Below are positions 2,787 to 64,000 of a stretch of 64,000 bases of DNA, piece by piece (the stretch's first letter is position 1; the number at the start of each line of letters is the position of its first letter). The translations under genes and the position numbers were made by a program. This stretch comes from Cyanophora paradoxa CCMP329 (Eukaryota > Plantae > Glaucophyta), in assembly GCA_004431415.1 (NCBI GenBank), contig QPMI01000416.1, forward strand, positions 248,001 to 312,000, read 5' to 3'. The notes below the pieces were generated by a model. It was given only the letters and a program-made list of their open reading frames with translations. It was not told where the DNA came from and did no database searches.

Positions 2787-2788
2787 AT

Positions 2789-4945: not shown

Positions 4946-4980
4946 AGACTCGCGCATTTATTTCTTATTTAAAATAAAAG

Positions 4981-11972: not shown

Positions 11973-12024
11973 CTCTTATGTTTAAAATACCAAAAGAAAT
12001 TTTTAAAATGCTTTATTAAACAGA

Positions 12025-12912: not shown

Positions 12913-12948
12913 GAAATACTGTAGAATAAATTTGTTTCAATATTACAA

Positions 12949-19683: not shown

Positions 19684-19684
19684 A

Positions 19685-43591: not shown

Positions 43592-45643
43592 TTATTGCGG
43601 CATCAATTTGGGTGGTGTTGGCGCCCCGAATGCCCTTGTCCACAGTCTCCAGGGCCTTGTGGCAATTATGTGTCCGATCCGCCAGACGTGAGCACTACAT
43701 TGGAAAGCAAGCGATCGCGAAGGAGACGGGATTCGGACCTTCGCAGTGGAGTTCCTGTTCACAAACAGCGCAGCTCCACCTACCGCGGTACAATCCATCA
43801 TCGATATCCGGGAGGGCAGCTCACGATTAGCGGCCACGATCATGAGATTTCGCAGTGATTGTGTTTCGAATTTGCCGCACCAGCAAGGATGCTGTGGATA
43901 GCGGTTGTCAGGTAGCCCGGGACTCCGAAGGCCTGATGATGGGGAGCTCAAACTTGGCTCGCATGCGCAAAATTGAATTTTAAAACCGTCGACGGACCGC
44001 GATGCCGACGAAAATGAAAATAAAGAAGAAAAACAGGAAGAGACAACTTTCATACAACAGCCCAACGTCGCTCAACCTTTAGGGGGAGTCAATTTGCAAC
44101 ATTTGCCTGTACATGTCACGCATATATTTAAGTACATGCGCTCGGGTGCGTACGCACGAGCATCGCTCTTGCATGGCGAAAATTCGAACAATCATCCCGA
44201 CCTTCCCATAATTGAACTTCGTCAGCATCTTCTGGATGCTTTCCTTTGCTCCCTGAATGTTTGCATGCTCGCCGCCGGGGGTTGCAGGGGTAAAAGGGAA
44301 ATTTCCAAACTCCGATTCGCCATCTTGATTAACCTGCTGCGCTTTGCTTGATGTATTCGAGTGCGCAATACTAAATAATAACGAGTGAAATGCAAGCGCA
44401 CGCACGTGATAGGAATTGGCGGGCTCTCGAATGCCTTTGAACGATTCTAGGCCTTGTTTCCGTGAGCTGGAGCTCGGGTGCGCGACCTCAACGACCATCG
44501 TGCTCGCTCCCTCCACCTCCTCGACATGTACATCTTGATTTTCCCGATCGGCGGTTTCGCTCTCTGGCGCACCTGCCTGCATGCGCAGACCACGACGCGC
44601 ATGAGAGGCCTGAGGTGGATTCGCGGTTTTCTCTGCCTCGGCCAGGGCTGTCGATGCAGAAAAGGTCGGCGCAGCTCAGCGGCTGCAGTAAGCAGCGGAG
44701 ACATGTGTCCAGCACGGCGAGCGCTAGCGCACCCCGTCTTGAGTTAAAGATTTCCATTCGAACGGCCTGAATGAGACGCTGTTGAGCAGCGGTACGAGCC
44801 TGCATCTGAAGGCGGCTCTCCACGTATTTCATAAACTCGATATTCTGCTTGTGGTCTGGAAAGCGATCGTATTCAGGGATTGCTTATTAGCAGTGTAGGT
44901 CGAATAGCAAGCAGATCTAGGCATTCGTAATCTAGATCACAGGCGCTGACCCTTCAGCGAAGTGAGCGCCTTCTTCACGTCTCTGATCTCTTCGATCAAC
45001 TCCGTGAAAGCGGCGCGCGCTTTGTTGATCTCGGAAGAAAGCTGGGCGCCAAGACGTTTGAGGAACTTCCACAACCTCCAGACGTGTCCCAGAAACGATA
45101 CTATAGCTGCGCACGTGCACGTGCACGTGTCGCATGTTCAGCTCCAAATGTACAGCGAGACGTACGCAAATAATAGAGATATTAACAATATTAATGCATA
45201 CCCACGCAAATCGGTATGACACGCTCTGGCTTGAGAATAACGCCTACGTTATGTTACGTGAGATATAGAGCCACAATGAAAATTATTATCTTAGATCAAT
45301 GAAAATTATGTAATCACCAAGTGAGACCCATAATATCGTCACGCTAGTCCCGACGAGGGACGCAATCGCAAAGATGACCCAGAAGGAGAGCGCGACCGAG
45401 AACACGAATTTCAGCCACCACAAAAGTCTCCCATCCATCGGGATGCTGTCATCTTGGATGGCCGACTTGTCGTGAGCAGCGCCAATTCTGTTGATACGAT
45501 TCACCAGGTTTTGAGTCCATTCCTTGTTGTGGAAATAATACATGCACAATGAGAACTGCGATCACGATTGCGTCAAGCTCTGTACACGTAATAAATTTAT
45601 TTCCAGCCGCAGCACAAAGAGCCTACCCCGTTCAGAATGTAGA
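43592..45643 (-). CDS. Host multi-exon gene, probable membrane protein, apparently cut by element 3
   Basis: Minus-strand exon-like ORFs including hydrophobic LLWWLKFVFSVALSFWVIFAIASLV; intron-like GT...AG next to the junction. Confidence 0.4.
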
Positions 45644-45942
45644 CACACATAGAGAAAGCCCGCGTTTTATCCCTCGGCAAAGTTTAATTATATTTTGTTT
45701 ATATTTTACCTATATTTATTGCATATTTAACGATAATTTATGTGTATTTTATCCTTTATTCTTGTCTTTTATGTGCGTATTTCTTATAAATTACTATCCA
45801 AACCCTTACTGTTATTTAATTTACTCGTATCTCCGATGTATTTCACCTCTATCTCTCGTAATCACTTGTATTTGAGGTGGATTTTAAACTTAGTTAAATT
45901 ATATCACGCCTCCTGATAAAACGCGGGCTTTCTCTATGTGTG
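45644..45942. repeat. Perfect 28-bp inverted repeat pair around an AT-rich spacer
   Basis: CACACATAGAGAAAGCCCGCGTTTTATC (45644-45671) and its exact reverse complement (45915-45942). Confidence 0.92.
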
Positions 45943-46128
45943 ATATTACGCATTATCGTGTATAATGATATGGAAATAATATGGGTATGCATTTAATGAA
46001 AAATATGTATTTAATTATACAAGAAATATGTATGAAATTATAATGGAATTCCAACGAAAAATAAAAAAATGTTCTTTGCGCTTGCGCAAGGCAAGCTTAG
46101 CGTGCCGCTGGATATAATGCGATGATGA

Positions 46129-46460
46129 GTCGTCAGACAAGCTGCCTTGGCTGCGCCTATGGAGCGCATATGGCGCCGTTGTAAACAGCTACAAGTCGTC
46201 AGACAAGCTGCCTCGGCTGCGCCTGTGCTGTAAGGAGCGTGGAGCGTGTATTATAAGAAAGATAAGTTAGTATTCTATATAGATCTTCTGTTATTATAAT
46301 GGTATTTCCTATGTGTAACAGGTGTAACAGGTTCATCCCAAACTTTCCCCTAGGAGGAGGTCGGCGGTTTGGAACTTTGGGATTGACCTGTTACACCCGT
46401 TACAACGTAAACAACTATAAGTCGTCAGACAAGCTGCCTCGGCTGCGCCTGTGCTGTGTG
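46129..46460 (+). repeat. Three ~30-bp direct repeats
   Basis: GTCGTCAGACAAGCTGCCT(T/C)GGCTGCGCCT at 46129, 46195 and 46421. Confidence 0.9.
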
Positions 46461-46664
46461 GGAGGCGGAGCGTATAATACAATAAAGATAACGTAGTATT
46501 ACTTATGGTATATTATGTTATTTTAAGACTGAGATTATGTTATTTTAATGGGTTCTTACTGAAAATGGTATGTGTAACAGGTGTAACAGGTTCATCCCAA
46601 ACTTTCCCCTAGGAGGAGGTCGGCGGCTTGGAACTTTGGGGAGAACCTGTTACACCTGTTACAC
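46314..46664 (+). repeat. Two tandem ~92-bp iteron hairpins
   Basis: TGTAACAGG x2 ... CCTGTTACA x2 at 46314-46404 and 46572-46664; the second has a 22-bp perfect outer stem. Confidence 0.92.
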
Positions 46665-46828
46665 CACACTTAAATACTATAAATTAACCTGTTACATCTT
46701 CTTTTACCACTTATTACCGTGTCGGAAATCTCGATACTTTATGTCTCTCCGTATGTGGAGATCCACCAAAGATACCTATTATCCTCTCTTCTATTAACGA
46801 TGATATATTACATGTCTTTCGCTCGTGC

Positions 46829-46912
46829 AAAAAATGAAAGTCCCGTGAGCTACACAAATTGATTTAAGGAAGTTGCGATATAGAGGTGTAAGAAAGAAAA
46901 TTATTTTCTGTG
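46829..46912 (+). promoter_or_regulatory. Duplicated promoter-like block, copy 1
   Basis: AAAAAATGAAAG...GCTACACAAA.TGATTTAAGGAAGTTGCGATATA is repeated at 47546-47633; each copy precedes an ORF. Confidence 0.7.
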
Positions 46913-46930
46913 TCTAATATAAAAGCAAAC

Positions 46931-47539
46931 ATGTCTTATCTGTTCAATGGTCAAATCATCTTCTCTGTTCGTATTCGTGATATTCCGTTTTCCGTCGGTG
47001 AAATGCTGGAAATTATAAATGCTATCCATCATAACGGAAGATTAATAGGCAATTCACCCACTTATTCTGATATGCGGGGTGTCGGTTATTTCATGCATAA
47101 ACCTCATCAAATAGTTGTTAGACATGTTGATGATCGGTTTTACATTGCGAAAGCCATTGAGCCTATGGGAAATATTAAATTCCTTGTAAGACAACTCCGT
47201 TATGATGAAACAGAGGATGAAGAATATGTAGAAATTGTCAATTTCTGGCGACATGTCCGATGCACTCAATATAAGGTATCTGATGTCATGGATGTAATTG
47301 TAAGAGATTACGGTAATCAGATGCAACCACGTTATTATTTTAAAGTAAATCGTGATCTCTCGGTTTATCATCGCAAGTTTGAAGGGCATAACTTAAAGTT
47401 AACTACCCGTGCATCGGTTCGTGAATTCTTAAAAGCCAATGGTGCCGCATGGAGTCGTGGACATCGCATGTGGTATATTGAAGAAAAGGACAAAGTGGGT
47501 ATAGTGGGCGACATATTCAGTTTGATTGATCGTGATTAA
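46931..47539 (+). CDS. Hypothetical protein with C-terminal DUF5710-like motif
   Basis: REFLKANGAAWSRGHRMWYI resembles the K..GA.W....WY motif. Confidence 0.6.
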   Translation: MSYLFNGQIIFSVRIRDIPFSVGEMLEIINAIHHNGRLIGNSPTYSDMRGVGYFMHKPHQIVVRHVDDRFYIAKAIEPMGNIKFLVRQLRYDETEDEEYVEIVNFWRHVRCTQYKVSDVMDVIVRDYGNQMQPRYYFKVNRDLSVYHRKFEGHNLKLTTRASVREFLKANGAAWSRGHRMWYIEEKDKVGIVGDIFSLIDRD

Positions 47540-47545
47540 TAAGGC

Positions 47546-47633
47546 AAAAATTGAAAGCCCCGTGGGCTACACAAAATGATTTAAGGAAGTTGCGATATAT
47601 AGGGGTAACAAAGAAAGAGAAAAATTTTTCCGT
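47546..47633 (+). promoter_or_regulatory. Duplicated promoter-like block, copy 2, containing AAAATTGA
   Basis: Exact AAAATTGA at 47547-47554, upstream of ATG 47645. Confidence 0.7.
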
Positions 47634-47644
47634 GACGTATTACA

Positions 47645-47923
47645 ATGTCGCGCGCTGAAATGTTTAAGGAGATCTCCGATATCATGGAAGCCGCTGAATA
47701 CTTCTATAAAGAAAACGATACCCTTTACCCTTCTCTGTCTCAAATTGTAGCGATCGGTTTCTTAGCTGATAGACCCGACCGACTGTATGCAAAGAGTGAT
47801 GAAAACCACTTTTTCCACTATCAAAAGCAAACTTTAAAAAGAGGAAAGGTGGAATACAATGTTAAAGCACTGTTTAACTTTGGTGGTGAGTTCATCCCTC
47901 TCATCGAATTCAAAAACCACTAA
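47645..47923 (+). CDS. Hypothetical protein
   Basis: 92-aa ATG ORF downstream of the duplicated promoter block. Confidence 0.6.
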   Translation: MSRAEMFKEISDIMEAAEYFYKENDTLYPSLSQIVAIGFLADRPDRLYAKSDENHFFHYQKQTLKRGKVEYNVKALFNFGGEFIPLIEFKNH

Positions 47924-48831
47924 TCAATACCTAACGCTAAAAATTCCAACTGGAACGAATTATCGATACCGTTCATATCTACAACATCACCATAATAATC
48001 ACGAAACTCTACCGTTAACTCATTAATCACCAAATTTCGATCGTTTATTTTTATGTATTCGCCATGCTCTCCGCTATGGTAGATATACTTCCCGATGTCC
48101 TGACTTAATTGTAAACGCAAAATTGCGCCTTGGTTCTGTGGTTGCGATCGTGGGACTATATTATGGTTTGCCGCAAATGTGGCAATTTCTTTAATGTGCA
48201 TATAAATGTATTGTTCAGCGTTCATGTCCGCCATCTTTGGACTAACCGCTTTAAAAGCCATCGGCGCCGCTACTAACTCCGCTCCCTCGAATGTTATCCC
48301 CCACTGTGGGTGATCTGGTGTTATCGGAGTCCCCGCATAAAATAAGATATTTTCGGGAGCATATAAAGACCTATTATTATCTATTATCTGTGCTGCGCTT
48401 CCTAATAATGTTGTTGCACTGAGACCCAATAACTTAGCTATCCTATTGTTTCCTGCGATGAGTTCAAAAGCATAATTACTATAAAACTCTAACTTGTATG
48501 TCGTCGGATTGTAGTAGATCTTAAATAATATATTGTCAGTAACGGCGTAATTCAAACCGTAATTATACGGCTGTGTCACACCAAAGTGTCCTTGGTTTAT
48601 GTAACCACTCGGTAATGGGTATACTTGCTGATTAAGATAAACACCATCAATATTGTATCGTATAGTTATAAAATCGGTTCCTATTGAATTATAGATACTG
48701 TTCGGAATCTCAGCATACAAAACGCGACATTGCCGCGGTTTGGTTATTGGTCTTGTGAGTGCAACCCTATAAGAGTTTTCTTTTTGTCCTTGTTGTCGAT
48801 CTCTACTATCGACATTGATAAGACGAATCAT
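47920..48831 (-). CDS. Minor capsid (penton-like) protein A
   Basis: LINVDSRDR...YRVAL...AEIPNSIYN and LTVEFRDYYGDVVDMNGIDNSFQLEF. Confidence 0.8.
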   Translation of the reverse strand: MIRLINVDSRDRQQGQKENSYRVALTRPITKPRQCRVLYAEIPNSIYNSIGTDFITIRYNIDGVYLNQQVYPLPSGYINQGHFGVTQPYNYGLNYAVTDNILFKIYYNPTTYKLEFYSNYAFELIAGNNRIAKLLGLSATTLLGSAAQIIDNNRSLYAPENILFYAGTPITPDHPQWGITFEGAELVAAPMAFKAVSPKMADMNAEQYIYMHIKEIATFAANHNIVPRSQPQNQGAILRLQLSQDIGKYIYHSGEHGEYIKINDRNLVINELTVEFRDYYGDVVDMNGIDNSFQLEFLALGID

Positions 48832-48860
48832 TTTATTATATGAATATACATTAAAGAAAC

Positions 48861-49871
48861 ATGCCGGTCGAATATGTCGAAGTTTCATCATTTAGACAGG
48901 CTCCTAATCTCGATGCGCCGACGTCTAAGTTTATCGCTGAATTACCAAAGATGTATGAGAATGTAAGAGCTGTCCGACTTGTTTCGGCGGAATTCTATAA
49001 CTCCATTCCTCTTATCAGCGGTGAAAGTGTCCCCGGAGATGTCACAGTTAATGATTCTTTCACTATTAATTTTAGTATCGCTAATTCAGCTATCAACTCT
49101 ACCAATGCACCCGCTCCCGGTTTCGATGTTTGGCGCTCGATTCGTCCCGGTCAAAATATCGGAAGCACAGTAATTAATACGCATCAGGAACTGGTTAACC
49201 GTATAAATACTCGTTTTGCTGGGGCTACACCCGATCCTCAAATTAGGTGTAAATGGGAAACCGAAAATAAACGCGTAATATTCTATGCTCCACATGAATT
49301 TTACATAGCATTCACGACTGCTAAGGATCCTTCTAGTTCGATGGCTGAAAAGTCAAACCGACACGGTCGTATGCTTGGTCTCGATGCCGGAAGAGCCGGT
49401 AACCGTTTCATCAAATCTAACATTTACTCAACTGAATATGATTCAGTTTTTACCGGTGCTAATGTTCATGGTATCATCTCTACATTCCCTACTGAGAGTT
49501 GCAAAGATAACGTATTATTCGTAAGAGTGAAAGAACTGGGTGACCTCGTTCAGTGTTCCGATGGTCTCCTATCTGGATATTTCCATAAACTCGTTGTGCA
49601 AGATAAAGACTTTGCGGAACACGTTGTTTATAACTCAACAGAAGCAAACCCGTTATATAAATATTATGGTAAATCATTCTCTATTTCTCAATTGTCCGTA
49701 GAAATTGTGAATGCTCAAAACGAATTAATTGATTTCGAAGGGCAACCTGTGCATTTAACTTTCGAGATCCGATATGGAAATGAGCCCGCCGGTGATCCTA
49801 TTTATGAGTATTTCAAAATGCGGATGGCGGAAACGCATCCAAATTATCCGGTGATTTGCAATTTTGGATAA
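48861..49871 (+). CDS. Minor capsid (penton-like) protein B
   Basis: F..ELP..YENVRAVRLVSAEFYNS and ISQLSVEIVNAQNELIDFEGQPVHLTFEI; same family pattern as protein A. Confidence 0.75.
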   Translation: MPVEYVEVSSFRQAPNLDAPTSKFIAELPKMYENVRAVRLVSAEFYNSIPLISGESVPGDVTVNDSFTINFSIANSAINSTNAPAPGFDVWRSIRPGQNIGSTVINTHQELVNRINTRFAGATPDPQIRCKWETENKRVIFYAPHEFYIAFTTAKDPSSSMAEKSNRHGRMLGLDAGRAGNRFIKSNIYSTEYDSVFTGANVHGIISTFPTESCKDNVLFVRVKELGDLVQCSDGLLSGYFHKLVVQDKDFAEHVVYNSTEANPLYKYYGKSFSISQLSVEIVNAQNELIDFEGQPVHLTFEIRYGNEPAGDPIYEYFKMRMAETHPNYPVICNFG

Positions 49872-49922
49872 TTAAGGATCATTCACAGAATTTTTATATT
49901 TTATTATTGTAAAAGAGAAAAC

Positions 49923-51323
49923 ATGGACGTCACGACAACCCTCCAACGTCTTTCCCTCAAAGAGGCGCTAACCACCCCCGAAGAGGCGAAGGCGTTCTTC
50001 CTCGATAACTCGCTTATGCTTGGTCTGGAATCGAAGACTAAACCCGTTCTCGTTACTGTTAGCCCATCGACAACCTTCCCTAACAACGCTGCGCAACGAG
50101 TAAGTTTCAAACTTCCACGTTACAACTTCATCGGTAAGCTGGAACTCGCTTTCGATCTAAGCGAAATTGCGGGTTTCATCGGTGATACCGATCTTGTTCG
50201 TAATGGTTATGTGCGCCCCGTCGGCGCTCTTGTAGAGCGTCTCGAAATCTCGTATGGCTCTTACCTTTTCACTGTGCCTTCTGATTTCCTCGCTCACTTC
50301 CCTCTGGTTTATTATTCGGAGGATCAGCTAGCGAAAAAGAAACGTTCGGCTGGTTTCCTACACGGCATCCCACAACACGGAACTAACCGACTTGGTGGGT
50401 CATTCTTTGTGGAAATCCCGGTTCCGTGGTTAAACAGTTACCTACCACTTGGCGCGCTCTCAGGCGAAATGGTAGTTACCGCATGGTTCCGTGACCCCGC
50501 TAAGGGTGGATTCATTGAGACTTCTTATGGTGGTCGCGCTCTTCCGGTTGTAGGTGGAACCGCTGCCGATCAAACCGCTAATGACGGTCTCGGAAACGCT
50601 ACTAATGTAACCCTTGCTAATGTCGGTCAAAACATCACAACTGGAACCATTACCGGTCTGTCCATTCCATCATCTGCACCCGTGGATACTATTATGATCA
50701 CCAACCCACGCCTTTACATGCATGCCGTCAATGTTTCCGATGAGCTGTTTGCTACGGTCATTGAGAAGGTTAAGACTACTGGTATTGCGATTCCGGCTAT
50801 CGACATCGGCTACGTCGATGCTTTCGATGTTGCCGCCAACGGCAATAACCAACCTAACCGTATTAACATTAGCCAAATGTCGGGGCTTGCTTTCGCTCTT
50901 CTATTCTCGGTTCGTGACTACCTTAAAACCGGTCAGGATAACAGCGGCTCCCACAGTGTCCTTAAAACATATGCGGACTCGAAGGATATCACATACACGG
51001 TGGAGATTAACGGACAGCGTCTTTATTCCACGGAGCCTATCCCACTCCTCAAAGGTGCGGAACTCATCGCCGATGCATTCAAGTGTTCTAACATGGATAA
51101 GGAAGCTAACCGCTATGTCCTGTCCGGTCTTCCGTTCTGTCTGGACGGAGAGAAGGCAATTCGTAACATTGCCCAAAGTGGTTATGTCGATCTAACTAAC
51201 TCCTCATCAAGTTTCCTAACCCTCTACGTCCCACAAAACATGCGCCTTACTGTTAACGTGCGCGCTCTCATGCACACGATGCTCATAGCGGACCGCGATG
51301 GTTTAAGAAGGGTAAATTTGTAA
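49923..51323 (+). CDS. Major capsid protein
   Basis: Shares blocks with the other MCPs: LKEAL, FKLPR, VPSDFL, VEIP, MSGLAFALLFSVR, GYVDLTNSSSSF; followed by the ATPase. Confidence 0.82.
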   Translation: MDVTTTLQRLSLKEALTTPEEAKAFFLDNSLMLGLESKTKPVLVTVSPSTTFPNNAAQRVSFKLPRYNFIGKLELAFDLSEIAGFIGDTDLVRNGYVRPVGALVERLEISYGSYLFTVPSDFLAHFPLVYYSEDQLAKKKRSAGFLHGIPQHGTNRLGGSFFVEIPVPWLNSYLPLGALSGEMVVTAWFRDPAKGGFIETSYGGRALPVVGGTAADQTANDGLGNATNVTLANVGQNITTGTITGLSIPSSAPVDTIMITNPRLYMHAVNVSDELFATVIEKVKTTGIAIPAIDIGYVDAFDVAANGNNQPNRINISQMSGLAFALLFSVRDYLKTGQDNSGSHSVLKTYADSKDITYTVEINGQRLYSTEPIPLLKGAELIADAFKCSNMDKEANRYVLSGLPFCLDGEKAIRNIAQSGYVDLTNSSSSFLTLYVPQNMRLTVNVRALMHTMLIADRDGLRRVNL

Positions 51324-51405
51324 TAAGCACTGTGTGTGTTTGTTACCATTATTTAGTCATATTTCGTTATTTTTATCTGGCTTTATTAAGAAGATCTACA
51401 ACACC

Positions 51406-52188
51406 ATGGATGATGTCCCCGAATTTAACGCTGGCGAAATGATTAAACCACCATTTCGCGTCCTCGCAATCGGAAAATCGGCTACGGGTAAGTCGGAAGC
51501 CGTTAAATACTGGCTAAAACAGTTACACGATGAGAAAAAGTTAGATGTTGTTTTAGTTGTAAGTGGAACCGCATTTAATCATTTCTGGAATAATGTAGCT
51601 ACTATACAGCTCGGTAAATGGGATGCTCCTTATATCGCTAAACTTCTCGATGAAAGACAAGAGAAAATAGAGAAAGGAGAACCCGTTAACCAATTGTGTG
51701 TAGTTCTCGATGATCTTATAGATAATGAGTTAGTCGACCTTACCCGCGATAAAATTATTGGTTCTCTGTATTCGCGTGGTCGCCACTCAAATATATCCAT
51801 TATCTGTATCACACAGAAACTGCGTAAGGTTTCTTCCACTATTCGCGTTAATTCGGATTATGCAATGTTTCTTAGCGCCGCTAATCGGAAAGAACTCGAA
51901 GCAATAGAAGAAGAATACAATATAATAAGAGATAAAGACGCTTTTTATAAGATGTTTGAGGAATACGTGCATTCCTACCAATTCCTCATTTGGTCATCCG
52001 CTGATTATTCGGTAAAGTATTATGTAGATAAAGCGGATCTCGTTAAAAACTTTGGATTTCCGCGGTTCCATCGCAAACCTAAAAAGAAAGAAGACGAATT
52101 AAAACCACCTGAGAAGGAGGAAGCGCCAAAAGAAATTAAAAGCGCTATTCATACGAATAAATTGATGCGATATAAGAGAGGACTTTAA
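51406..52188 (+). CDS. A32/FtsK-like DNA packaging ATPase
   Basis: GKSATGKS, VVLDD, RGRHSNISIICITQ, IRVN. Confidence 0.93.
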   Translation: MDDVPEFNAGEMIKPPFRVLAIGKSATGKSEAVKYWLKQLHDEKKLDVVLVVSGTAFNHFWNNVATIQLGKWDAPYIAKLLDERQEKIEKGEPVNQLCVVLDDLIDNELVDLTRDKIIGSLYSRGRHSNISIICITQKLRKVSSTIRVNSDYAMFLSAANRKELEAIEEEYNIIRDKDAFYKMFEEYVHSYQFLIWSSADYSVKYYVDKADLVKNFGFPRFHRKPKKKEDELKPPEKEEAPKEIKSAIHTNKLMRYKRGL

Positions 52189-52216
52189 AATTATCTTCCA
52201 TATAATTAAAGATACA

Positions 52217-52948
52217 ATGCCGCCAAAACGTAAAGTAGGTGTCCCCGCTGGGGCTATTTCATATTCCGGTGGTGAAAGTTACGGGTCACTTAATACTACA
52301 CCTATGAAATTCGATGGAGTTAATCAAGTGAAACCATCGCAACCGGAAGAAGATCCCTTAAATGCCGCTTATGAAGAATCGCCGGCGGACAAAGCGCCGC
52401 AAGCATCGACAAGTGAAACACTCAATGTATCACCGGATGCATCGAAGATGAAGGCGGTCGGTGAGGGTGCGCGTCGTATTATCGGTGCCGCTGATGATCG
52501 CGGTCTTGGTCTACAAGATCTTGCACTTGCTCGTAAAGGTCAAGGTGTTTCGAAAGAATCGGACAAGGTTATACAATCGATGGCGGGAGAAGTAACTTAT
52601 AAAGTCGCTCCGACTCAAAACGTCCACCGAATGCCAAAGGCTGAATGGGACACAATGACCGCTAAACTACGCGATCTCGAAGCTAAGTCAAGTGCGCTAG
52701 AACAGTATGTAATGGAGAAGAAAGAACGCGCTAAAATGAAGGAAATGTTACGTAAAGAGGTTTTCCGTATGGGAATTACGGGACTTCCTGATACTCAATT
52801 TATTCGGAAGAAAGAGACACAAATAGATGAGCAAGCGGTGGATGAAATGAATACCAAAAAGAAGGGAACCATAGAACCTGGCGCTACCAAAGCGGAAGTA
52901 GAGAAAGCCGTAGCACCAACAGTATACAAGCGGAGAGTTTGGCTTTAA
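52217..52948 (+). CDS. Hypothetical protein with N-terminal NLS-like PPKRKV and coiled coil
   Basis: 243-aa ORF with an AT-rich upstream region, in the capsid block. Confidence 0.7.
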   Translation: MPPKRKVGVPAGAISYSGGESYGSLNTTPMKFDGVNQVKPSQPEEDPLNAAYEESPADKAPQASTSETLNVSPDASKMKAVGEGARRIIGAADDRGLGLQDLALARKGQGVSKESDKVIQSMAGEVTYKVAPTQNVHRMPKAEWDTMTAKLRDLEAKSSALEQYVMEKKERAKMKEMLRKEVFRMGITGLPDTQFIRKKETQIDEQAVDEMNTKKKGTIEPGATKAEVEKAVAPTVYKRRVWL

Positions 52949-52971
52949 AATTTATATATCTTTATAGAGAC

Positions 52972-53226
52972 ATGGACTTTTTGCAAAAGATCATAGAGAT
53001 GTTTAATATCCACGTGGTTAGCAATTGCCACAGCGGGTGCTGTGATACAACCGTAGAAGTGGGTTTTTCAGACAACGAAGATAATGAGACAGAAGGTAGA
53101 CGATCCCGAAGAAATTCAAATGTTTCGACTGGTTCGCGACCACCTACACCGGAACAGGGTCGCCGGTTTTCCGTAGATAATAGCGATGATTTACGAAGGC
53201 AAGCGTTTGATTATCACGGTAATTAA
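52972..53226 (+). CDS. Small protein with SxCxxxCC motif
   Basis: MDFLQKIIEMFNIHVVSNCHSGCC; TATATA upstream. Confidence 0.55.
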   Translation: MDFLQKIIEMFNIHVVSNCHSGCCDTTVEVGFSDNEDNETEGRRSRRNSNVSTGSRPPTPEQGRRFSVDNSDDLRRQAFDYHGN

Positions 53227-53428
53227 AATATTTGTAATAAGTATCGGAAAATGCTCGAAGAAGTCTATAATATTATTTTAGCGAAACGTCAGATTTACGC
53301 CATTCAATCTGCGATAGAAAAACGTAGACAAGAGCTTGTTCGGTCGCCAAAAAATGACAACCCTAAAAGTATTTAAAGAAACAGCGATAATACAAACTGA
53401 TAAAATATTTTCTGTGCTGAAAGTAAGA

Positions 53429-54742
53429 ATGGCTGCTATCGCCGATGATGTTAGCGTAATTGAATTCGAATTCGAAAGTGACAGCGATGAAATTGTTAAC
53501 TCACCACCAAAGGTTAAACTTAATCCTAAGAGTGCCGATGGGTTAAATTATCGGATCCGTGAAGTGCTGAGACTGCGAAAGAAGTATGAGGAAGACCCCG
53601 AATACCGTGAATTCAAAAATCGGTTTAGTCGTCCGACCTTTTTCGAAAGATTGGATACAGTGCCTAACATTATCGGTTTCACTAATGGTGTTTTCGATCT
53701 TAACACTATGACCTTCCGTAAGGGAAAACCCGATGATATGGTTAGCAAGACCGTAGGCTATGAATTCATCGCTGCCGACCGTCAGAAAATCGCTAAGATT
53801 CAATCCATCTATGCTGATATTATCGAAGATCCCGATGAGCGTAACTATATTATCGGAGCGCTTGCTTTCGCTCTCACAGGTCGGACTGATATCCAAAAAT
53901 TCAATTTCTGGTCTGGAAAAGGTGCTAATGGTAAATCGCTACTGCAAGAAATGGCTAAGAAAACATTCGGCGATTACTACGGCTCGATCAGTATGAGCTA
54001 CTGGACAAAGCCTAAAAAGAATTCATCAGATGCTACGCCCGATCTTGCCGCAATTCTTGGGAAGCGAATCGTATTCAGTAACGAAGCGGAAGATGGCGAT
54101 AAGTTGCAAATCAGTAAGATTAAGGAAATCACAGGTGGAAACGAAATGAAGGTTCGCGCTCTCTTTAAGGATCCCGTCGCCTTTATTCCGATGTGTCAAA
54201 TCTTCCTATCCACCAATGATAACCTTTCTCTCAGCAAAGCTGATGAAGCCATATTACGTCGGCTCATCTATTGCACATTCAAGAGTGTCTTTAAGCCGAA
54301 TCCTAAGGAAGGTGAAAAGAAAGCCGATATTACCCTTATGCATCTTCTCGATGACGACGAGTATAAAATGGCTCAAATGTCTATATTCTTGGACATGTTT
54401 AGAACGCAAGACCTTGCCGACCTTATGCAAAATCCGCCCCAATCTATCATCGATTACGGATCGGAATATTTCGCTGAAAATGATAAGATCGGTGAATGGA
54501 TCAGAAATACTTATGAAAAGACAGGAAACCGTGATGACTTTGTTTCAAGTGATTCTATCATGAAGAAATATAGACAAGTGGATGATAAGGCGGAACCGAC
54601 AAGCATCGGTAAACGGATGCGCGAGATATTTAATGTTAAGTCTGAGTCTAAGCGCGAAAGGGGCGCGGTTATTCGTGGATATTATGGAATCAAAGCCATA
54701 ATTCACCATAACGAATTTGTGGATGATGATGTAGAAGCGTAA
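53429..54742 (+). CDS. D5-like superfamily 3 helicase lacking a primase domain
   Basis: IGFTNGVFDL (D5_N), GKGANGKS Walker A, FSNE, IKEITGG, STN, ILRRL; C-terminal winged-helix-like RGYYGIK. Start chosen at the ATG after the promoter-like motifs. Confidence 0.9.
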   Translation: MAAIADDVSVIEFEFESDSDEIVNSPPKVKLNPKSADGLNYRIREVLRLRKKYEEDPEYREFKNRFSRPTFFERLDTVPNIIGFTNGVFDLNTMTFRKGKPDDMVSKTVGYEFIAADRQKIAKIQSIYADIIEDPDERNYIIGALAFALTGRTDIQKFNFWSGKGANGKSLLQEMAKKTFGDYYGSISMSYWTKPKKNSSDATPDLAAILGKRIVFSNEAEDGDKLQISKIKEITGGNEMKVRALFKDPVAFIPMCQIFLSTNDNLSLSKADEAILRRLIYCTFKSVFKPNPKEGEKKADITLMHLLDDDEYKMAQMSIFLDMFRTQDLADLMQNPPQSIIDYGSEYFAENDKIGEWIRNTYEKTGNRDDFVSSDSIMKKYRQVDDKAEPTSIGKRMREIFNVKSESKRERGAVIRGYYGIKAIIHHNEFVDDDVEA

Positions 54743-54844
54743 ATATAAATGAATTGAATGATTGCTTTCTTACTATTTTTTATAACCTTACTGTGTATGG
54801 TAAGAATTAACAATGTAACAGGTGGATTTTTGGTTTTCAGTCTC

Positions 54845-54937
54845 GTGTAACAGGTGTAACAGGTCTATCCCAAAGTTCTGACCTCTGACCCCCCTCCTAG
54901 GGGAAAGTTTGGGATGAACCTGTTACACCTGTTACAC
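54845..54937 (-). repeat. Third iteron hairpin, inverted relative to those at 46314-46664
   Basis: Reverse complement of 46572-46664 with substitutions; homology extends over about 54812-54981 vs 46528-46700. Confidence 0.92.
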
Positions 54938-55097
54938 ATACCATTCTCAGTAAGACCCCTTTAAAAACATAAAAACTCAGTGTGAATATCCTTATTAATA
55001 TAATTTGTAGTGTTTTATTACTATAATCTGTAAAAATTGAACAAGATATTTAAGCATTTATTTGTTTGACTATACGAAGTTCTCTACGAAGTTATCA

Positions 55098-55352
55098 ATG
55101 GCTACCCGTAAGTTTGCTTTCGAAATGACCGATGAAGAATTAGACCAAAACATAAAACAAGAAATTACCATGGAAGCAACAGCGGAATATTTAAAAAGGG
55201 TATTCGGTTCTAATCCGTTATTGGAAACAAAGAAACGCCGCACTCATGTTATCAAAGCGAATAACGTCCAACTTAACCTTATACTTCCTGAGGGCGTTAA
55301 AGTGCGCATTCGTGGAGTTACCGTTTATGATCCGAAATGTGTCCAAAAGTGA
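55098..55352 (+). CDS. Hypothetical protein
   Basis: ATG ORF preceded by AAAATTGA (55033-55040) and TATTTAAG. Confidence 0.55.
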   Translation: MATRKFAFEMTDEELDQNIKQEITMEATAEYLKRVFGSNPLLETKKRRTHVIKANNVQLNLILPEGVKVRIRGVTVYDPKCVQK

Positions 55353-55410: not shown

Positions 55411-56316
55411 TCAACCTTGCACAATGTAACGATCGCTGCATATTCTAATTCGTATACTTGCCAATTTAAAATGTTTTTTTAACAATTCAACAACTTGTTC
55501 GATTGTATACGCCACTGAACAATTAGTATCACGATCCCATAAACAATCTAATTGTTTCGGAATATCTCTACGTTCCCATGCGACTTTGAAATGTAAGCGA
55601 ATTTCAATACGTGGACATTCCATGTATTCAGCGAGCCATTCAAGGAATTGCTTCCTTTCAGCTCTGAATTTATCTATATCGTGTTTTCTCATTTTATCCA
55701 TGTTTGGAACAAAGTTTTCACACCAAACTACAAACTTTCTCGCATTTGCCTGATTAATAAGCTGTTGTTGTTCCCATTCTTTCTGTCTCTGTTCCCATTC
55801 TTCCTGTCTTTGTCTTCTTTTTTGTTCTTCTTCTTGCCGTTTCTTTTCTTCTTCTTGCCGTTTCTTTTCTTCTTCTTGCCGTTTCTTTTCTTCTTCTTGC
55901 CGTTTCTTCTCTTCTCTTTGCCTTTTCCTCTCTTCTTTTGCTTTTTGTTTTCTACAATGATTACAATAGTCTTCTTTACGGTTCCAATGCCTTTCCTCAC
56001 ATTGATGACATAAGTCACCTCTGTGTTCTTCTGGCATGAACCGTTCTATACAATGATTTCCAACCAAAACGATAATTTTCTTTTCGACATGCAATATATA
56101 ACATTGCTCTTCTATGTGATGAGAACAGGCACATTTATTATGTTTTGGAGGAAGGTTTTCAATTCCTACATTATAGTGTGCAAGTTTAGCGCGTATCCGT
56201 TTCATATTATGCTCACTTCCCAACTCAACATAATCTAGGAAGTTATCAGAACCACATAGGTTACGTAAAGTCTCTTTTAACTGTTCGAGATAGCTATTTT
56301 TCTTTTCTGTTGTCAT
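55411..56316 (-). CDS. Zn-binding, coiled-coil protein with DUF5710-like C-terminus
   Basis: CACSH.I...C...VGNHCI and CxxC...CxxC motifs; KKRQEEE repeats encoded by a 21-bp tandem repeat; FKVAWERRDIPKQLDCLWD. Confidence 0.7.
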   Translation of the reverse strand: MTTEKKNSYLEQLKETLRNLCGSDNFLDYVELGSEHNMKRIRAKLAHYNVGIENLPPKHNKCACSHHIEEQCYILHVEKKIIVLVGNHCIERFMPEEHRGDLCHQCEERHWNRKEDYCNHCRKQKAKEERKRQREEKKRQEEEKKRQEEEKKRQEEEKKRQEEEQKRRQRQEEWEQRQKEWEQQQLINQANARKFVVWCENFVPNMDKMRKHDIDKFRAERKQFLEWLAEYMECPRIEIRLHFKVAWERRDIPKQLDCLWDRDTNCSVAYTIEQVVELLKKHFKLASIRIRICSDRYIVQG

Positions 56317-56446
56317 TTCTGTTTCTCTGTATGTGTTACACATAAAATGTTTTCTCATCTGTCAATTTTTGAGTTGTCTTTAAATACGTTTCTACATTTT
56401 TAAACGCGTTTCATTTCCGAAAAAATAATGTTCCTATAAAGCAAAG

Positions 56447-59400
56447 ATGCCCCGCCAAACTAATAGACTTATTAAAGAAAAGAAAAATGAGATTATCGGA
56501 CTGTTAGGAACCCTTTTAACTACCGGTGAAATCACAGAAGCCGAATATGATAGAGAAGCCGCCATTTTAGATCGGAAGCCGCGACTACAACAACTTACCG
56601 ATATCGCCAATGACCTTTATGATCGCATGCAAAGAATGGAAGACTTTATGGACGAAGGACAACGCTTAGGAGCAATTGAACCCGAAGTAGAAGATGGAGA
56701 GGCAATGAATCAAGCTTACTCATGGCATTCTTACCGCGCAAGAAATCAAATAGTTGTGGATACTATCGATTATTTGGAACGCATCGCTACTAACCTTCCA
56801 CAGCGAATTAGAACGAAGTTAGAACAATTAAGAGCCGTTAAAGTCCGCCTTACATTCGTTTGTCGGTTTGTAAAAGTAAGTAATGAACGCATTTTTATTA
56901 CTAAATATATTTACAGTGACTACTTTGTTATCACACGATCCCGTAATATAAATACGGAATTGCGTAAAGCTCTACAAGAAATGCAAGAGCAAATGAAACA
57001 AGTAGATAGTTACCGTTTGGATCGCTTAGAGATCCTTAGGGTTGTTATCATGTCTTACGCACCGGTGGGTGGTTGCTATTTTGCTACTCCCGAATGGATC
57101 GCAAGAAAGAAAGCAACCGTTAACGTTAAGAATATCGACGGACAAGATTGTTTTAAATATGCTATTTTGGCTCGTCTACACCGAAAGGACATTAACCGCC
57201 ATAAAAGCTATGATCCCATTCAATATCGCCGATGGCTTAATGAACTGAACTTTAATAATATCGAATTTCCGGTAGCATGTGATGCTGATGTTATCGATCG
57301 ATTCGAAGAACAGAACCCTGACTTATCGGTTAATATCTACGGTGCTGATAACGAAAAGGAGTCGTTTTATCCGTTACATATGTCGAGCAATCCACGTAGA
57401 AAGAATAAGATTAACCTTTTACTCATTGAAAATACGGAGGAGAATAGAGGACATTATGTAGCTATTGTGTCTCTAAGTCGCCTCCTTAAAACCACGTTCG
57501 ATAAAGCATGTGATGGACGCATTTATTACTGTGAAACCTGTCTATCACGTTTCCGATCTCAGGCGAAATTAGACCTACACATAGAAGCTAATCGGTGCAT
57601 CGATTGGAGGGAAAGTAAAGGAAAATGTCCGAAACCTGATACTTACATGGAATTTGGATTAAAACACCTAAGAAAGACTGTATGGCTTCATGTGATCTGT
57701 TACGTTAAAATCGAAGATCATTCGGTATCTGTGAGTGCAAACAAAACCAAACGTGAAATTAAAGCTGTGTCATTGAGAGTGGTAATAGGAGAAGAAGTGG
57801 TAGCTTTTCATTTTGAGGGAGCCGATCCTTTGGGTTCGCTGTTCGCAAAACTCATAGAAATAAGACCTCATGTAGTGCAAACCCTATTTAGAAATATTCC
57901 CATGCATCCCCTTACGGAAGATCAGAAGGCGGAATATAGAACCACAAAACATTGTTATATTTGCTTGCAACGATTCACAGCTGAAAACGTTTCGGTTCGC
58001 GATCACTGTCACCAAACGGGCGATTATATCGGGAAAGCATGCCGAAACTGTAACCTCCATAGGCGAATTTCTAAACAAACAAAAGTAGCTATCGTGGTGG
58101 ATCAAATGGACGAATGCGGACATGGATATTCCGAAAGATTGCCCAACAAGACGACACACAACGTGTGGAAATTCTAAGTAAAAATTTCGATCAGTATCTA
58201 TCGCTACAATGGGGCATGTGGAAATTCATCGATGCATCGCATTTTATGGATTTCCAAAGTGCAAATGTCGATGATCTTATGTTTAAATTCGAAGAATTCC
58301 GTAAATTGGCGTTCTCTCAATATGGATTAGATCCATGTCATTACGTTAGCGCTCCCGGTCTATCATGGGACGCTATGTTAAAACATACAAAGGCAAAGAT
58401 TGCACTTATCGATGATGTAGACAAATACGAATTTATTGAAAGAGCTATTCGGGGTGGATTTGCTACTATGCCACACGATATGCAAAGGTAGAGAATCCCG
58501 ACGATCATATAGTTTTATTGGACGCAAATAATTTATATGGTTTTGCACTCAGCCAACCTTTACCTATTGGTGACTATCGATGGGAAGAAACCACAGAGGC
58601 ACTTAAAGAAGTAGAAGGACGAAACGCATTTATTGAGGTCGATTTAGAATATCCTATTTCCCTCGAAGATCATTATGATTTTCCACTTATTGTGAATAAA
58701 GAAGTTATCACGACAGATATGTTAGGTGAATACCAACAAAACCTATTATATATGACAGGTGAAAAGTTAACCAAAGATCCACGACTTACAGCAACATTTA
58801 CACCAAAGACTAACTATGTCATATCACAACCTCTACTTATCTATCTCGTTAAAAAGGGTGTAGTCATAAAAGCGATTCATAAGGTGATCTCATTCGCTAC
58901 GTCCCCTTTCATGAAATCTTACATAGCTCTAAATACAAGACTAAGACACGAGTCAGGGAATAGATTCGAAAGCGACTTTTTTAAACTCATGAATAATGCG
59001 ATATATGGAAAATGCTTAGAATCTTGTAGGGGTCGCTCTTCTGTAAAGATCGCCAATAGTGAGAAACTATGTAAGAAATATGCCGCAAGTCCACTTATCA
59101 AAGCAACCAATGTATTAAACGAAAACGCCGTAGCGTTTGAAATGTATTCGAAACATGTAAACTTAGATAAACCCGTAGCTATTGGTGCTTTCGTTTTGGA
59201 TTTCGCGAAGTTACATAATTATCAATTCTTTTATGATGTGGTAAAAAAGAAATGGGAAACGGCTAAGCTACTATTCCACGATACCGATTCGTTCTGTCTA
59301 TTTCTGAAAACCGATAATCTAAATGCGGACATGAAAGCCATCGGTGAACACCTCGATAGGAGTAATTATAATCGCGATCATCCATTATATAGTTTGTCGA

Positions 59401-59726
59401 ATCGATTGACTCCGGGGAAGTATAAAAACGAATTCCCAAATGCAAAGATCTTAGAATATGTGGGTTTGAGATCGAAACTTTACGCTTTCAGAACTGAAAC
59501 CTATGAAAAAATAAAAATGTCCGGGACAGCATCGAAAGAAGTCCATTTTGACGATTTTAAGAAATGTCTATTCGAAGGCATCACCAAAACAGTAACAGTA
59601 AGAAACAAGCGACGACAAGACCACAGCCTATATGATTTGGAGAGCAGAAGGGTGGCGCTAAACCAAATCGATAGCAAAAGGAAGATATCAAACGACGGCA
59701 TTCACAGTGTCCCATTTGGTGTCTGA
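56447..59726 (+). CDS. Protein-primed family B DNA polymerase (Polinton type), two apparent 1-bp frameshifts
   Basis: DCFKYA...GHY (OTU-like); CYIC...VRDHCHQTG...ACRNCN insert; GLDPCHYVSAPGLSWDAML; IRGG; LDANNLYG; FKLMNNAIYGK; HDTDS; GLRSKLY. One added base near 58123 and one near 58469 join the three ORFs. Confidence 0.93.
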
Positions 59727-60350: not shown

Positions 60351-61196
60351 TTATGGTTGTGGATCTCTACCGCCGACGGGATTGTATAGATTGGTGTTTA
60401 GATATTGACCGAATCGGTTAGCCGTCGCGATTGCGTCGTTTCTTTCGGCATACATAATAACTCTATAATTTCCGAGTTGTGTAGCTCTTATTATAAATTG
60501 GTTATCTTGTGTATCTAAAAGAGGTATTGAGTGGAACGCCTGACCGAAATTATCTATGGGGATAATGTGTATCGTTAGGCGTGGTCTTGCTCCGTCGGTT
60601 CTTCTACATAGTGCGTAAATGTCCTCTGGTATCGTGTCTCTATATCTATAATGATTTCCCAACGGTTCTAAAACATCGGCTACCGCTGTTTGTAAACTAA
60701 TAACGATTGTATAAATCTTAATAATATACGGCTCATTCATACCTGGGCAATATGTCCTAATTCGTGTGTTCTCATCGTCGGGGTTTGGTTGGTCATTTAC
60801 GATTAGAGGCGCTCCAATGATACCACCGACTCGGAGACCATCACCAATGTAAGCGCCTCCCGATCTACATTTAATTGCTCCGTTTCTCGATTCATAAGCA
60901 AAGTTTGTAACCTTGTTATCATCATTATAACTGTCGGGATCTCCATAAAAAGCGTTAAAATTTGCATTTGTTACAAGGAGTTTAGTAGTTTTCACAATGC
61001 CGTTATTTTTGTCACATCTTAACTCTTTCAGTCGCAATTTATGCGTATCACCAAAAGTATTAAGAGTAGGTGCAAGTTCGGTAGATTCGAGACCATCTAC
61101 ATTATCGATAACAGCATGTTGTAATACGTGATTAGCCGGCGCGGCTAATGAAAGTTGCGCTGTTAAGATACGCTCAGGTGGAGCGGGTGCCGCCAT
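60351..61196 (-). CDS. Fibre/spike-like protein, paralogue 1
   Basis: Shares N-terminal QH.V....STE.A....F....R.KELR.DK..G.VK.T...V.N...GGA.IG.G domain with 61216-62058 and 62444-63457. Confidence 0.65.
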   Translation of the reverse strand: MAAPAPPERILTAQLSLAAPANHVLQHAVIDNVDGLESTELAPTLNTFGDTHKLRLKELRCDKNNGIVKTTKLLVTNANFNAFYGDPDSYNDDNKVTNFAYESRNGAIKCRSGGAYIGDGLRVGGIIGAPLIVNDQPNPDDENTRIRTYCPGMNEPYIIKIYTIVISLQTAVADVLEPLGNHYRYRDTIPEDIYALCRRTDGARPRLTIHIIPIDNFGQAFHSIPLLDTQDNQFIIRATQLGNYRVIMYAERNDAIATANRFGQYLNTNLYNPVGGRDPQP

Positions 61197-61215
61197 TTAA
61201 TATATTAAAACATAA

Positions 61216-62058
61216 TTATGGTGTGGGATCACCTGGGAACGGATCATCGTAGAAGTTATTTAGGTTGTTATCGGGATTGAGACCACGTGTAGCCGCCACA
61301 GCGGCTGGATCTGTTCGCATTCCGAAAATGAGAATATCGTAACCTCCTACTTCTGTCGTCCAAACATTGAATGTTGCGGGGTTCTGGTTGTCAAATTCCA
61401 CCCAACCTCTACCGCGTCCGATTCCCTGAACAAAGAAAGTATAAGCCGGACCAATAATACCATTTTGTGAACGACATATAGACTCAATAGATTTAGGAAT
61501 AGCGATATTTGGTAGTAACCAATTTCCCAAAATTCCATCGGGTTGTGTTGCATTTACGTTATCTACCGCAACTCTAACCATTCCAAACACGTAAGGATAG
61601 TCTCCACATGGAGTATACATACGGATACGTTGCGGATTCTCCGCATGCTCAGGTAGAGTATCGGGAATATCGGTAACGGCAACGGAGGATGCAAGCATAC
61701 CCGACACACGACAACCGCCACCAATAACAGCGCCACCTGATCGGACAACAGCGGCGGCACGTTCTCCGTCAAAATCTAACGTTCTAATATCCACACCCCA
61801 TGCGTCAGGTTGCCCAATACCCGCGTTAAAATTCGCATTTGTTACAAGAAGCTGAGTAGTTTTAACCACTCCTGAATTCTTATCGGCTCGTAGTTCTTTC
61901 ACACGTATCATACTGTTTTTATCGAATGCATTCGCGGAATTAGCCCGTTCCGTAGATTCCACACCGCGGATTTCATCGGCTACCTCGTGTTGTCGAAAGT
62001 GGACGGCGGGCGATCCCAAAGCGTAAACAGGTAATTGCACACGATTATATTCGCCCAT
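61216..62058 (-). CDS. Fibre/spike-like protein, paralogue 2
   Basis: Full-length paralogue of 60351-61196 (e.g. LLVTNANFNA shared). Confidence 0.65.
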   Translation of the reverse strand: MGEYNRVQLPVYALGSPAVHFRQHEVADEIRGVESTERANSANAFDKNSMIRVKELRADKNSGVVKTTQLLVTNANFNAGIGQPDAWGVDIRTLDFDGERAAAVVRSGGAVIGGGCRVSGMLASSVAVTDIPDTLPEHAENPQRIRMYTPCGDYPYVFGMVRVAVDNVNATQPDGILGNWLLPNIAIPKSIESICRSQNGIIGPAYTFFVQGIGRGRGWVEFDNQNPATFNVWTTEVGGYDILIFGMRTDPAAVAATRGLNPDNNLNNFYDDPFPGDPTP

Positions 62059-62170
62059 TGCTTCTTTTACTAAGAAGGAAAGAAAAATAAACGACTTTCA
62101 AGAAGGACATGCAAGATACATGCCTTTCTTATGCATGATCTATGAAAAATAACAATAAACCCATCTCTCT

Positions 62171-62434
62171 TTACATAGGAGCACTCACAGTAATTTCGCT
62201 TGCCTTTCGAACAGTCCCCCGATTAAACGCTTGCTCTACAATCGCTTCCTTTGTGAGTGGAATCGGAATTCCAGCAGCAATACACGATTTAACTTCTTTG
62301 TCCACAATCTCATCAATCGCGATTCTCGCCCTATTATGAGCAGCATTATCGATCCAATCCTGAACAGAGTAGGCACAGTATTCCATTCCCAGTTTTTCAG
62401 TATCAGTTAGAACTACTTGATAGATGTTCGACAT
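62171..62434 (-). CDS. Small protein resembling phage fibre-associated proteins
   Basis: LTDTEKLGMEY.A..VQDWIDNAAHNRARIAIDEIV; from memory similar to small genes downstream of C1q-tipped phage fibres. Confidence 0.65.
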   Translation of the reverse strand: MSNIYQVVLTDTEKLGMEYCAYSVQDWIDNAAHNRARIAIDEIVDKEVKSCIAAGIPIPLTKEAIVEQAFNRGTVRKASEITVSAPM

Positions 62435-62443
62435 TCTTTTACT

Positions 62444-63457: not shown

Positions 63458-63477
63458 CTTTTGATTGTTCTTTATTA

Positions 63478-64000
63478 TTACGTGAGAATATTATTGTTTT
63501 GGAGAGGTCCGACAGCAATCCAATGGAGTTTAAGCGTTCTTTCGTTTTGTGGCACATTCGTATAATTGATCGCCGAATAACAAGTAAATATAGCAATCCA
63601 GGTGAATTTATTTTTGAAACCAACACGGTTCCCACTCACAAATTCAGCGGAGATATATATGCTATTGGTGAAATCGACACTCGTTAAAATAATACTGTTT
63701 TCGAGAGTAGCATTAACTATTGGATCACTATAATATGGGGTAGAAAACGTAACGGTTCCTGATGCTGTAAACACTTGCCCTACTGTATAAACTTGATTAG
63801 GTATAACTACATCCGCTGTCCCCTGTTGCACATATGCATTTGGATTTACATAGCTACCGAAATTCGTGAGCAACTCGATGCTGTGATTGTGAGTAGGTGG
63901 CGAAGTAGGTGTGTTAATCAGGTCATCATAATTTCCACTTGTAGCCACAGCATGTAGGTTTGGTGTGTTTATCAGATCATCATAATTTCCACTTGTAGCC
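63478..64000 (-). CDS. Fibre protein C-terminus (5' end outside window)
   Basis: Frame stays open to the window edge; two 57-bp repeats encoding ATSGNYDDLINTP, then a TVTF.TPY...P.V.AT...HWIAVG tip domain. Confidence 0.75.
   Translation of the reverse strand, partial: ATSGNYDDLINTPNLHAVATSGNYDDLINTPTSPPTHNHSIELLTNFGSYVNPNAYVQQGTADVVIPNQVYTVGQVFTASGTVTFSTPYYSDPIVNATLENSIILTSVDFTNSIYISAEFVSGNRVGFKNKFTWIAIFTCYSAINYTNVPQNERTLKLHWIAVGPLQNNNILT

Follow-up and report, generated by a model that had tools for sequence, protein, structure and literature searches.

In a 64,000-nucleotide stretch of the Cyanophora paradoxa CCMP329 genome (contig QPMI01000416.1; hereafter the window), an integrated element of the Polinton-like virus (PLV) kind carries imperfect 93-bp palindromes built from inverted 9-bp iterons, one of them shortly behind the gene for a D5-type superfamily 3 (SF3) helicase. 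This hairpin element is real and selected. With a probability of about 0.6, we read the palindromes as helicase-loading sites, that is, candidate origins, for the element's own D5-type helicase, and the block of genes between them as something other than a unit of its own; this reading draws on sequence comparison, a predicted protein model and analogy with known systems. Most likely, the element belongs to the class of origins known from prokaryotes (pRN1, Staphylococcus aureus pathogenicity island (SaPI) or P4 type), here in a eukaryotic integrated virus. The hairpin word is almost the same as a proven SaPI iteron, and in prokaryotic viruses the layout goes with SF3 helicase genes. The locus thus offers an exact and short candidate substrate for the question of how PLVs start replication and what an SF3 helicase does beside a protein-primed polymerase.

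Self-comparison by blastn recovered an inverted repeat pair (46520-46697 on the forward strand against 54989-54813 on the reverse strand; 179 nt, 83% identity, E 1e-44), which the first-pass annotation had placed with coordinates off by at most 10 bases. It had also reported a palindrome with paired units in each repeat, and this was borne out: the palindromes measure 93 bp (46572-46664 and 54845-54937), with arms of 33 nt that are 91% complementary and 27 nt between them. Two TGTAACAGG units stand on one arm and two inverted ones on the other, with a period of 9 bp, and a fifth lies 23 bp inward; the left repeat runs from an AT-rich flank through its hairpin (copy 2) to the fifth iteron (46688-46696), and the right repeat from the fifth iteron (54814-54822) through its hairpin (copy 3) to the AT-rich flank. 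The right hairpin starts 102 bases 3' of the helicase stop codon (54742), in agreement with the earlier estimate of about 100 bp. The left and right hairpins described before thus stood, but the count of two did not, as a third one at 46310-46404 (copy 1; 2+2 inverted 9-bp iterons, of which one has a mismatch) had been overlooked; it is part of a 226-260 bp tandem unit upstream. Folding compared with 200 shuffles gave z scores of -8.0 (46572-46664), -7.4 (54845-54937) and -5.3 (46310-46404). All 13 exact matches of TGTAACAGG in the window fell inside the hairpin sites, where chance would give about 0.5 for a 9-mer in 64 kb of double-stranded sequence (own arithmetic), and a hairpin detector that ignores the word returned exactly these three sites. 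When left copy 2 is aligned with the right copy, the iteron segments are identical at 20/20, 19/19 and 11/11 positions (50/50 altogether), whereas spacers and flanks are only 79%, 81% and 64% identical. Thus, selection acts on the units.

The helicase gene (53354..54742, forward strand) encodes a stand-alone protein of 462 aa with the Pfam domains D5_N and DUF5906, and no primase domain could be found in it by Pfam scan or in its AlphaFold2 model. The model (mean predicted local distance difference test score 86.9, and above 90 over the tail) predicts a C-terminal winged helix at about residues 378-448 with a basic beta-hairpin at 430-444, and the Walker A and arginine motifs are intact and common to 103 aligned relatives. 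Along its whole length the model matches C962R of African swine fever virus, poxvirus D5 and SaPI5 PriRep (7om0: Z 26.1, root-mean-square deviation (rmsd) 11.9, 347 aligned residues; 7ola and 8zjr were also matched), and the tail matches the winged helix of RFX5 (Z 10.6, rmsd 2.3, 78 aligned).

Such an arrangement has counterparts in known systems. The accessible text of PMC4234260 describes, for the archaeal Sulfolobus plasmid pRN1, a 100-bp stem-loop 54 bp behind the SF3 gene that is required for replication. The window likewise has a stem-loop of about 100 bp shortly behind an SF3 gene with a predicted winged helix (93 bp long, 102 bp from the gene, z -7.4), the pRN1 stem itself being about 21 bp. 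According to the same source, pRN1 ORF904 carries a primase-polymerase, whereas the window helicase has no primase, and pRN1 has one site per plasmid in which the structure is conserved, whereas the window has three sites in which the iteron letters are conserved; moreover, the one is an archaeal plasmid and the other a eukaryotic integrated virus. In SaPI5, as far as the available part of 10.64898/2026.10.17.759575 goes, the wing of PriRep binds TGCAACC units two bases apart. Compared with TGTAACA in the window, both words have seven letters, a 9-bp period and an opposed disposition, and in both cases the origin or hairpin lies downstream of an SF3 gene whose product combines the SF3 fold with a C-terminal winged helix, which in the window is predicted. 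The opposed iterons that SaPIs and phage-inducible chromosomal islands (PICIs) have downstream of the helicase gene are present here as 2+2 units plus a fifth at a 9-bp period, and the model of the window protein shows the SF3 helicase with C-terminal winged helix typical of them. The differences are that the SaPI origin spans 300 bp around an AT-rich centre, compared with 93 bp and a GC-richer centre in the window, that the primase is fused in SaPI5 but not in the window, and that the window has extra copies 8.3 kb away. P4 (GenBank X51522) has two iterons 9 bp apart in crr, which is found 46 bp downstream of alpha, and its ori is about 4.5 kb distant. Both P4 and the window have two separated iteron sites, one of them directly behind the helicase gene, with tandem units 9 bp apart and a duplicated unit, and alpha and the window helicase are 24% identical (E 2e-11). 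On the other hand, P4 has its duplicated site behind the gene and the window at the left end, and alpha has a primase whereas the window helicase has none. P4 alpha loops its two sites, an effect of which our literature look-up returned no account.

To follow the layout (TGTAAC..GTTACA) beyond the window, we used the relaxed pattern TGTAACANNTGTAACN{40,70}GTTACANNTGTTACA. It matched 43 viral contigs, where a reshuffled control matched none, and it also hit no fewer than 119 metagenome stretches (flanks examined for 80) and 25 prokaryote-genome stretches; the exact hairpin pattern had no match in viral contigs, and blastn against named phages gave chance 26-bp matches only. In two Pfam scans, of 81 and 58 neighbouring open reading frames (ORFs), the main neighbours of the layout were D5/VapE/DUF5906 helicases and small terminases. 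A locus-independent D5 profile, built from database proteins only, gave nine hits, in eight of which the hairpin was inside the 3' end of the gene or at most 23 bp from the stop. A second, looser pattern yielded 43 stretches, including seven additional loci where the hairpin is 12-144 bp from the helicase stop as well as two clusters with the helicase gene 2.9-7 kb away. The pooled set, from which 39 loci shorter than 1 kb were dropped, comprised 190 loci of at least 1 kb in 86 non-redundant clusters. An SF3 gene (D5/VapE) was present in 26 of the 86 clusters, and in 24 of these 26 it was within 500 bp of the hairpin, which lay downstream or in the 3' end of the gene in 22 clusters and upstream in 2. 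In several phage loci, the hairpin is inside the helicase coding sequence. No A32 ATPase could be found in the pattern loci, which indicates that they are prokaryotic. A CTAG word in the spacers was also considered and discarded as too weak (14 of 127, compared with a 6.3% background).

The same inverted TGTAACA layout was observed just upstream of the small terminase gene in several phage groups (L002, L006, L010, L011, L062, L189 and relatives), where it may serve as a packaging start or origin. In genomes of Bacteroidaceae and Prevotellaceae (L164, L166, L170-L172, L175, L178, L184), several dispersed 85-bp arrays of the same units occur per genome, and similar arrays lie between ordinary genes in L086 and L098; these arrays are possibly a family resembling repetitive extragenic palindromes or miniature inverted-repeat transposable elements.

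For eukaryotic viruses, we collected 79 D5 loci from the best 80 of 562 relatives, many of which are named giant-virus bins. The word-free detector gave a sole match in 898 kb, on a 16-kb contig (L273), where the same hairpin layout, made of another 9-bp word, lies 17 bp behind the stop of a gene fusing an archaeo-eukaryotic primase (AEP) to D5. The hairpin (3015-3116) has 2+3 inverted 9-bp units. The contig encodes AEP-PriCT2-D5 and a GIY-YIG nuclease, is without a capsid gene in the 9 kb examined, and looks like a small eukaryotic virus. Its D5 tail is the closest to that of the window among the 79 loci (E 0.02), and this one case suggests that the iteron word and the helicase tail may change together. 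The layout, having found this contig, is usable as an origin search pattern in other small eukaryotic viruses.

With regard to its position in the element, the hairpin-bearing element is one of three virus-like elements in the window; it starts at about 45605-45645, where single-copy host DNA gives way to it, and continues past the window. The unique contig stops at 45644 in 4/4 runs, and the summed contig depth, which served for locating the left junction only and not as copy number, rises from 39 to about 490 in the bin 45612-45665. In 20 of 24 listed runs, 61-65% of the words of the element were present, and the contigs show many diverged copies of it. A contig of one such copy, whose helicase is about 85% identical, likewise passes from the end of the helicase gene into a hairpin arm in 4/4 runs, which speaks for the loading-site reading. 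The left hairpins are about 0.7-1.1 kb from the junction, next to an apparent left terminal region (45605..46309) of which two parts are connected in other copies by the joint 45976->46183. It is likely that the region at 45.6-46.7 kb is a terminal inverted repeat (TIR), the right end of the element being beyond the window. The bracketed block of the first-pass annotation is a weak framing: the repeats do enclose genes, yet on the left there are two hairpins in tandem, situated within the apparent terminal region. With one site near the element end and one behind the helicase gene, the enclosure of the capsid genes is probably incidental.

It should be noted that a number of results weigh against a helicase-loading role. 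The spacers of the window hairpins have an AT content of 44-48%, compared with 60% in the element; AT-rich DNA sits outside the hairpins and not in their centre, so that the AT-rich stretch between opposed iterons of SaPIs and PICIs is missing, and 96 of 127 prokaryotic spacers, unlike those of the window, were richer in AT than their own locus. The iteron polarity is opposite to that of P4 crr, and the word is similar but not identical. In the pooled set, 60 of 86 clusters were without an SF3 gene in the DNA examined (many were short), 2 of the 26 with such a gene had it 2.9-3.6 kb off, and 6 of 86 had a small-terminase gene at most 600 bp from the hairpin, which shows that the layout is not confined to helicase ends. 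The pooled count itself favours near genes, as hairpin-adjacent genes had seeded two of its three helicase profiles. Among eukaryotic viruses, the word of the window was carried by none of the 79 giant-virus-type D5 loci, again from the best 80 of 562 relatives, and inverted repeats near D5 stops showed no excess (9/76 compared with 12/76 control stretches). Furthermore, searches of viral contigs for relatives of the major capsid protein (MCP), the helicase (from a single sequence) and the ATPase found none, and no loci encoding relatives of the capsid or ATPase genes turned up. The P4/PICI-type helicase-loading origin suggested in the first-pass annotation gains from the conservation of the iterons only, the link to SF3 genes elsewhere and the predicted winged helix, and loses by the lack of a fused primase and of an AT-rich centre and by a polarity opposite to that of P4.

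If the palindromes do load the helicase, the winged helix would attach hexamers to the TGTAACA units, which recur every 9 bp on each arm; the hexamers would need no separate loader and would then open the DNA. As the helicase is without a primase, priming would come from the polymerase of the element or from a host primase: the sub-terminal sites may serve priming by the polymerase and strand displacement from the ends, and the internal site behind the helicase may be primed by the host. Polyomavirus and papillomavirus SF3 initiators recruit host primase. A bolder version, which we regard as a long shot, is that the primase-less D5 helicase uses the sub-terminal and post-helicase hairpins as a second, phage-derived two-site origin, recruits host primase, and can amplify or pop out the 8.3-kb block of capsid and helicase genes independently of the polymerase. 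If this were true, one iteron code, TGYAAC at a 9-bp period, would extend from bacterial satellites to eukaryotic viruses.

The earlier statement that nothing of this sort had been described in PLVs was too strong. In its accessible part, PMC11296320 proposes inverted repeats of PLVs as origins for D5-type helicases and notes that the TIR repeat of Gezel-14T is duplicated behind the helicase module. Likewise, the available text of 10.64898/2026.10.13.758929 reports repeats inside elements with two replication genes and recognises the combination of a stand-alone SF3 helicase with a protein-primed polymerase, and terminal palindromes of PLVs are in print (10.64898/2026.07.28.741278, as far as available). 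These published repeats set a replicase apart or sit at the very ends, and the text available mentions neither an iteron word or period nor a connection with phage origins. No such hairpin element could be found in the accessible text of PMC12220804, 10.1101/2022.07.28.501842 and 10.1101/2025.10.09.676808. In the literature within our view, to which subscription journals, figures and bioRxiv supplements did not belong, no iteron-level description of such an element in PLVs or virophages was found.

Several other explanations were weighed. The right repeat could be a shortened right TIR from an earlier virus that had the helicase only (capsid genes, ATPase and D5), a module of polymerase and fibre genes having been added later into or beyond this repeat; the block would then be a relic or a still separable sub-replicon, which is compatible with an origin function, and a hairpin at the right end of the element would form direct repeats with the internal one around the added module. 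We hold this history to be unlikely. The likeness of the two repeats does reach about 50 bp past the hairpin into the outer AT-rich flank (79%), and the letters of the right copy agree in part with left copy 1 and in part with left copy 2, a mosaic such as past recombination would leave; the accessible literature also has helicases beside terminal repeats and a TIR repeat duplicated in Gezel-14T (PMC11296320), as well as repeats setting one replicase apart (10.64898/2026.10.13.758929). However, a scan for target-site duplications (TSDs) at the repeat ends gave one off-register 5-bp candidate only and none in register, whereas the same scan recovered the 6-bp TSD of a control element at 8613-20088; the repeats are 83% identical, compared with 99% for the TIRs of that element; and the right copy is without the terminal sequence of 45.6-46.3 kb. 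No integrase, transposase or recombinase could be found by Pfam and PHROGs among the main ORFs of the block. Finally, a contig at 54916-55306 (run X1; 3 substitutions and 12 gap letters relative to the window) joins the right hairpin to ORF84, and the joint 55333->56403 connects ORF84 to the polymerase gene in 4/4 runs. As these contigs differ from the window, the right hairpin is internal in other copies too. On these grounds (no TSD, no recombinase seen, linkage to ORF84 and the polymerase elsewhere), the nested sub-element considered in the first-pass annotation is disfavoured. Three contigs had outer flanks unlike the left region, for three short loose or bridging contig stretches nothing specific matched in 45.5-64 kb, and none of the listed short-read contigs spans a whole repeat with both flanks.

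A further alternative, in which the block is invertible and recombination at the repeat pair flips it, appears very improbable. Such flipping would agree with the inverted orientation of the copies, with the 51 nt that they have in common at 98% and with the mosaic among the three copies, and it could also produce the diverged-copy contig described above, in which the helicase end runs into a hairpin arm that resembles left copy 1 more than the other copies, the two lying on opposite strands. Nevertheless, the helicase of this contig is about 85% identical, which places it in another subfamily, and only 42 arm letters are available. No site-specific recombinase was found by Pfam and PHROGs in 45.6-64 kb, the visible part of the element, whose right end is beyond the window. 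Moreover, conservation lies on the tandem 9-bp units of both arms and not on a crossover core, and flipping would leave the pairings of genes and upstream regions unchanged. It is also quite improbable that the palindromes are packaging or transcription signals instead of helicase sites. The six clusters near small-terminase genes, the position of one window copy after a stop codon and the dispersed copies between ordinary genes in Bacteroidaceae genomes would be in line with this, whereas the commonest identified neighbour was the SF3 helicase (24 clusters), word and period match a proven helicase iteron, the hairpin is inside helicase coding sequence in several phage loci, and such a hairpin occurs at none of the other gene ends within the 64 kb of the window.

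The genes between the repeats are ORF202, ORF92, two minor capsid protein (mCP)-like genes, an MCP-like gene, the A32 ATPase, ORF243, ORF84 and the D5-type helicase, so that all genes listed for the block in the first-pass annotation are there, although its MCP and mCP labels have no match in Pfam or PHROGs. These labels rest on size, gene order and similarity to capsid-like genes of the two other elements in the window. ORF202 (46931..47539, forward strand, 202 aa) had no family match. The first mCP-like gene (47920..48891, reverse strand, 323 aa), whose label is inferred, is 22% identical to its counterparts in the two other elements (E 3.5e-9 and 8e-8). The second (48861..49871, forward strand, 336 aa), named so in the first-pass annotation, had no significant Pfam or PHROG match and no match to the other mCP-like genes of the window. 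The MCP-like gene (49923..51323, forward strand, 466 aa) was labelled from size, order and homologues; its product is 59-61% identical to its nearest relative, a Cyanophora paradoxa protein, and 26% identical to the counterpart at 2789-4018. As in Polintons and PLVs, an A32-type packaging ATPase is encoded (51406..52188, forward strand; Pfam Pox_A32, E 3.4e-11).

Outside the repeats, as previously described, are the genes for the polymerase and the fibre-like proteins. ORF84 (55098..55352, forward strand, 84 aa) is linked with the right hairpin in other copies as well, and a reverse-strand ORF of 315 aa (55411..56358) is absent from some of them, as indicated by the joint 55333->56403 in 4/4 runs. 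The gene resembling family B DNA polymerases (56447..59726, forward strand), which we take to be protein-primed from its motifs, is in three frames with an endonuclease VII insert (PHROG DNA polymerase, E 0.003, last piece; endonuclease VII, E 5e-6). Contigs differ by single-base length changes near both frame breaks, and thus the gene may be continuous in other copies or in the true sequence. A cluster of paralogous fibre-like genes (60351..64000, reverse strand; C1q domain, E 2.8e-9), three of which show 35-42% mutual identity, extends to the window end, past which the element continues.

Some further repeats were observed. At the apparent left end, a perfect 28-bp inverted repeat (45644-45671/45915-45942) encloses 243 bp and is connected to a downstream GC-rich motif in other copies. 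This motif of 31-37 bp occurs three times near the left end (46125-46161, 46191-46227 and 46417-46453) and, in other copies, also between two fibre-region genes (joint 62162->46128 in 4/4 runs; 62162-62168), and is possibly a transcription signal. A direct repeat of 73 bp (46827-46899 and 47544-47616, 90%) lies upstream of ORF202 and ORF92 and is promoter-like.

The element at 8613-20088 is a second, recently inserted Polinton-like element with TIRs of 404 bp that are 99% alike and contain internal tandem units, and with a 6-bp TSD; it shows how a recent insertion looks in this genome. It encodes an A32 ATPase, capsid-like genes, an SF1-helicase fusion and an rve integrase, and a duplicate at 6622-7151 shows its target site unoccupied. 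The third element (1-6250), cut by the window start, has an ORF like the protein-primed polymerases, an A32 ATPase, an HNH-AP2 gene, and MCP-like and mCP-like genes with 60% and 40% identity to their counterparts in the second element. In addition, a long GC-rich tandem array with a 42-bp period, open in three frames, was observed at 20450-21900.

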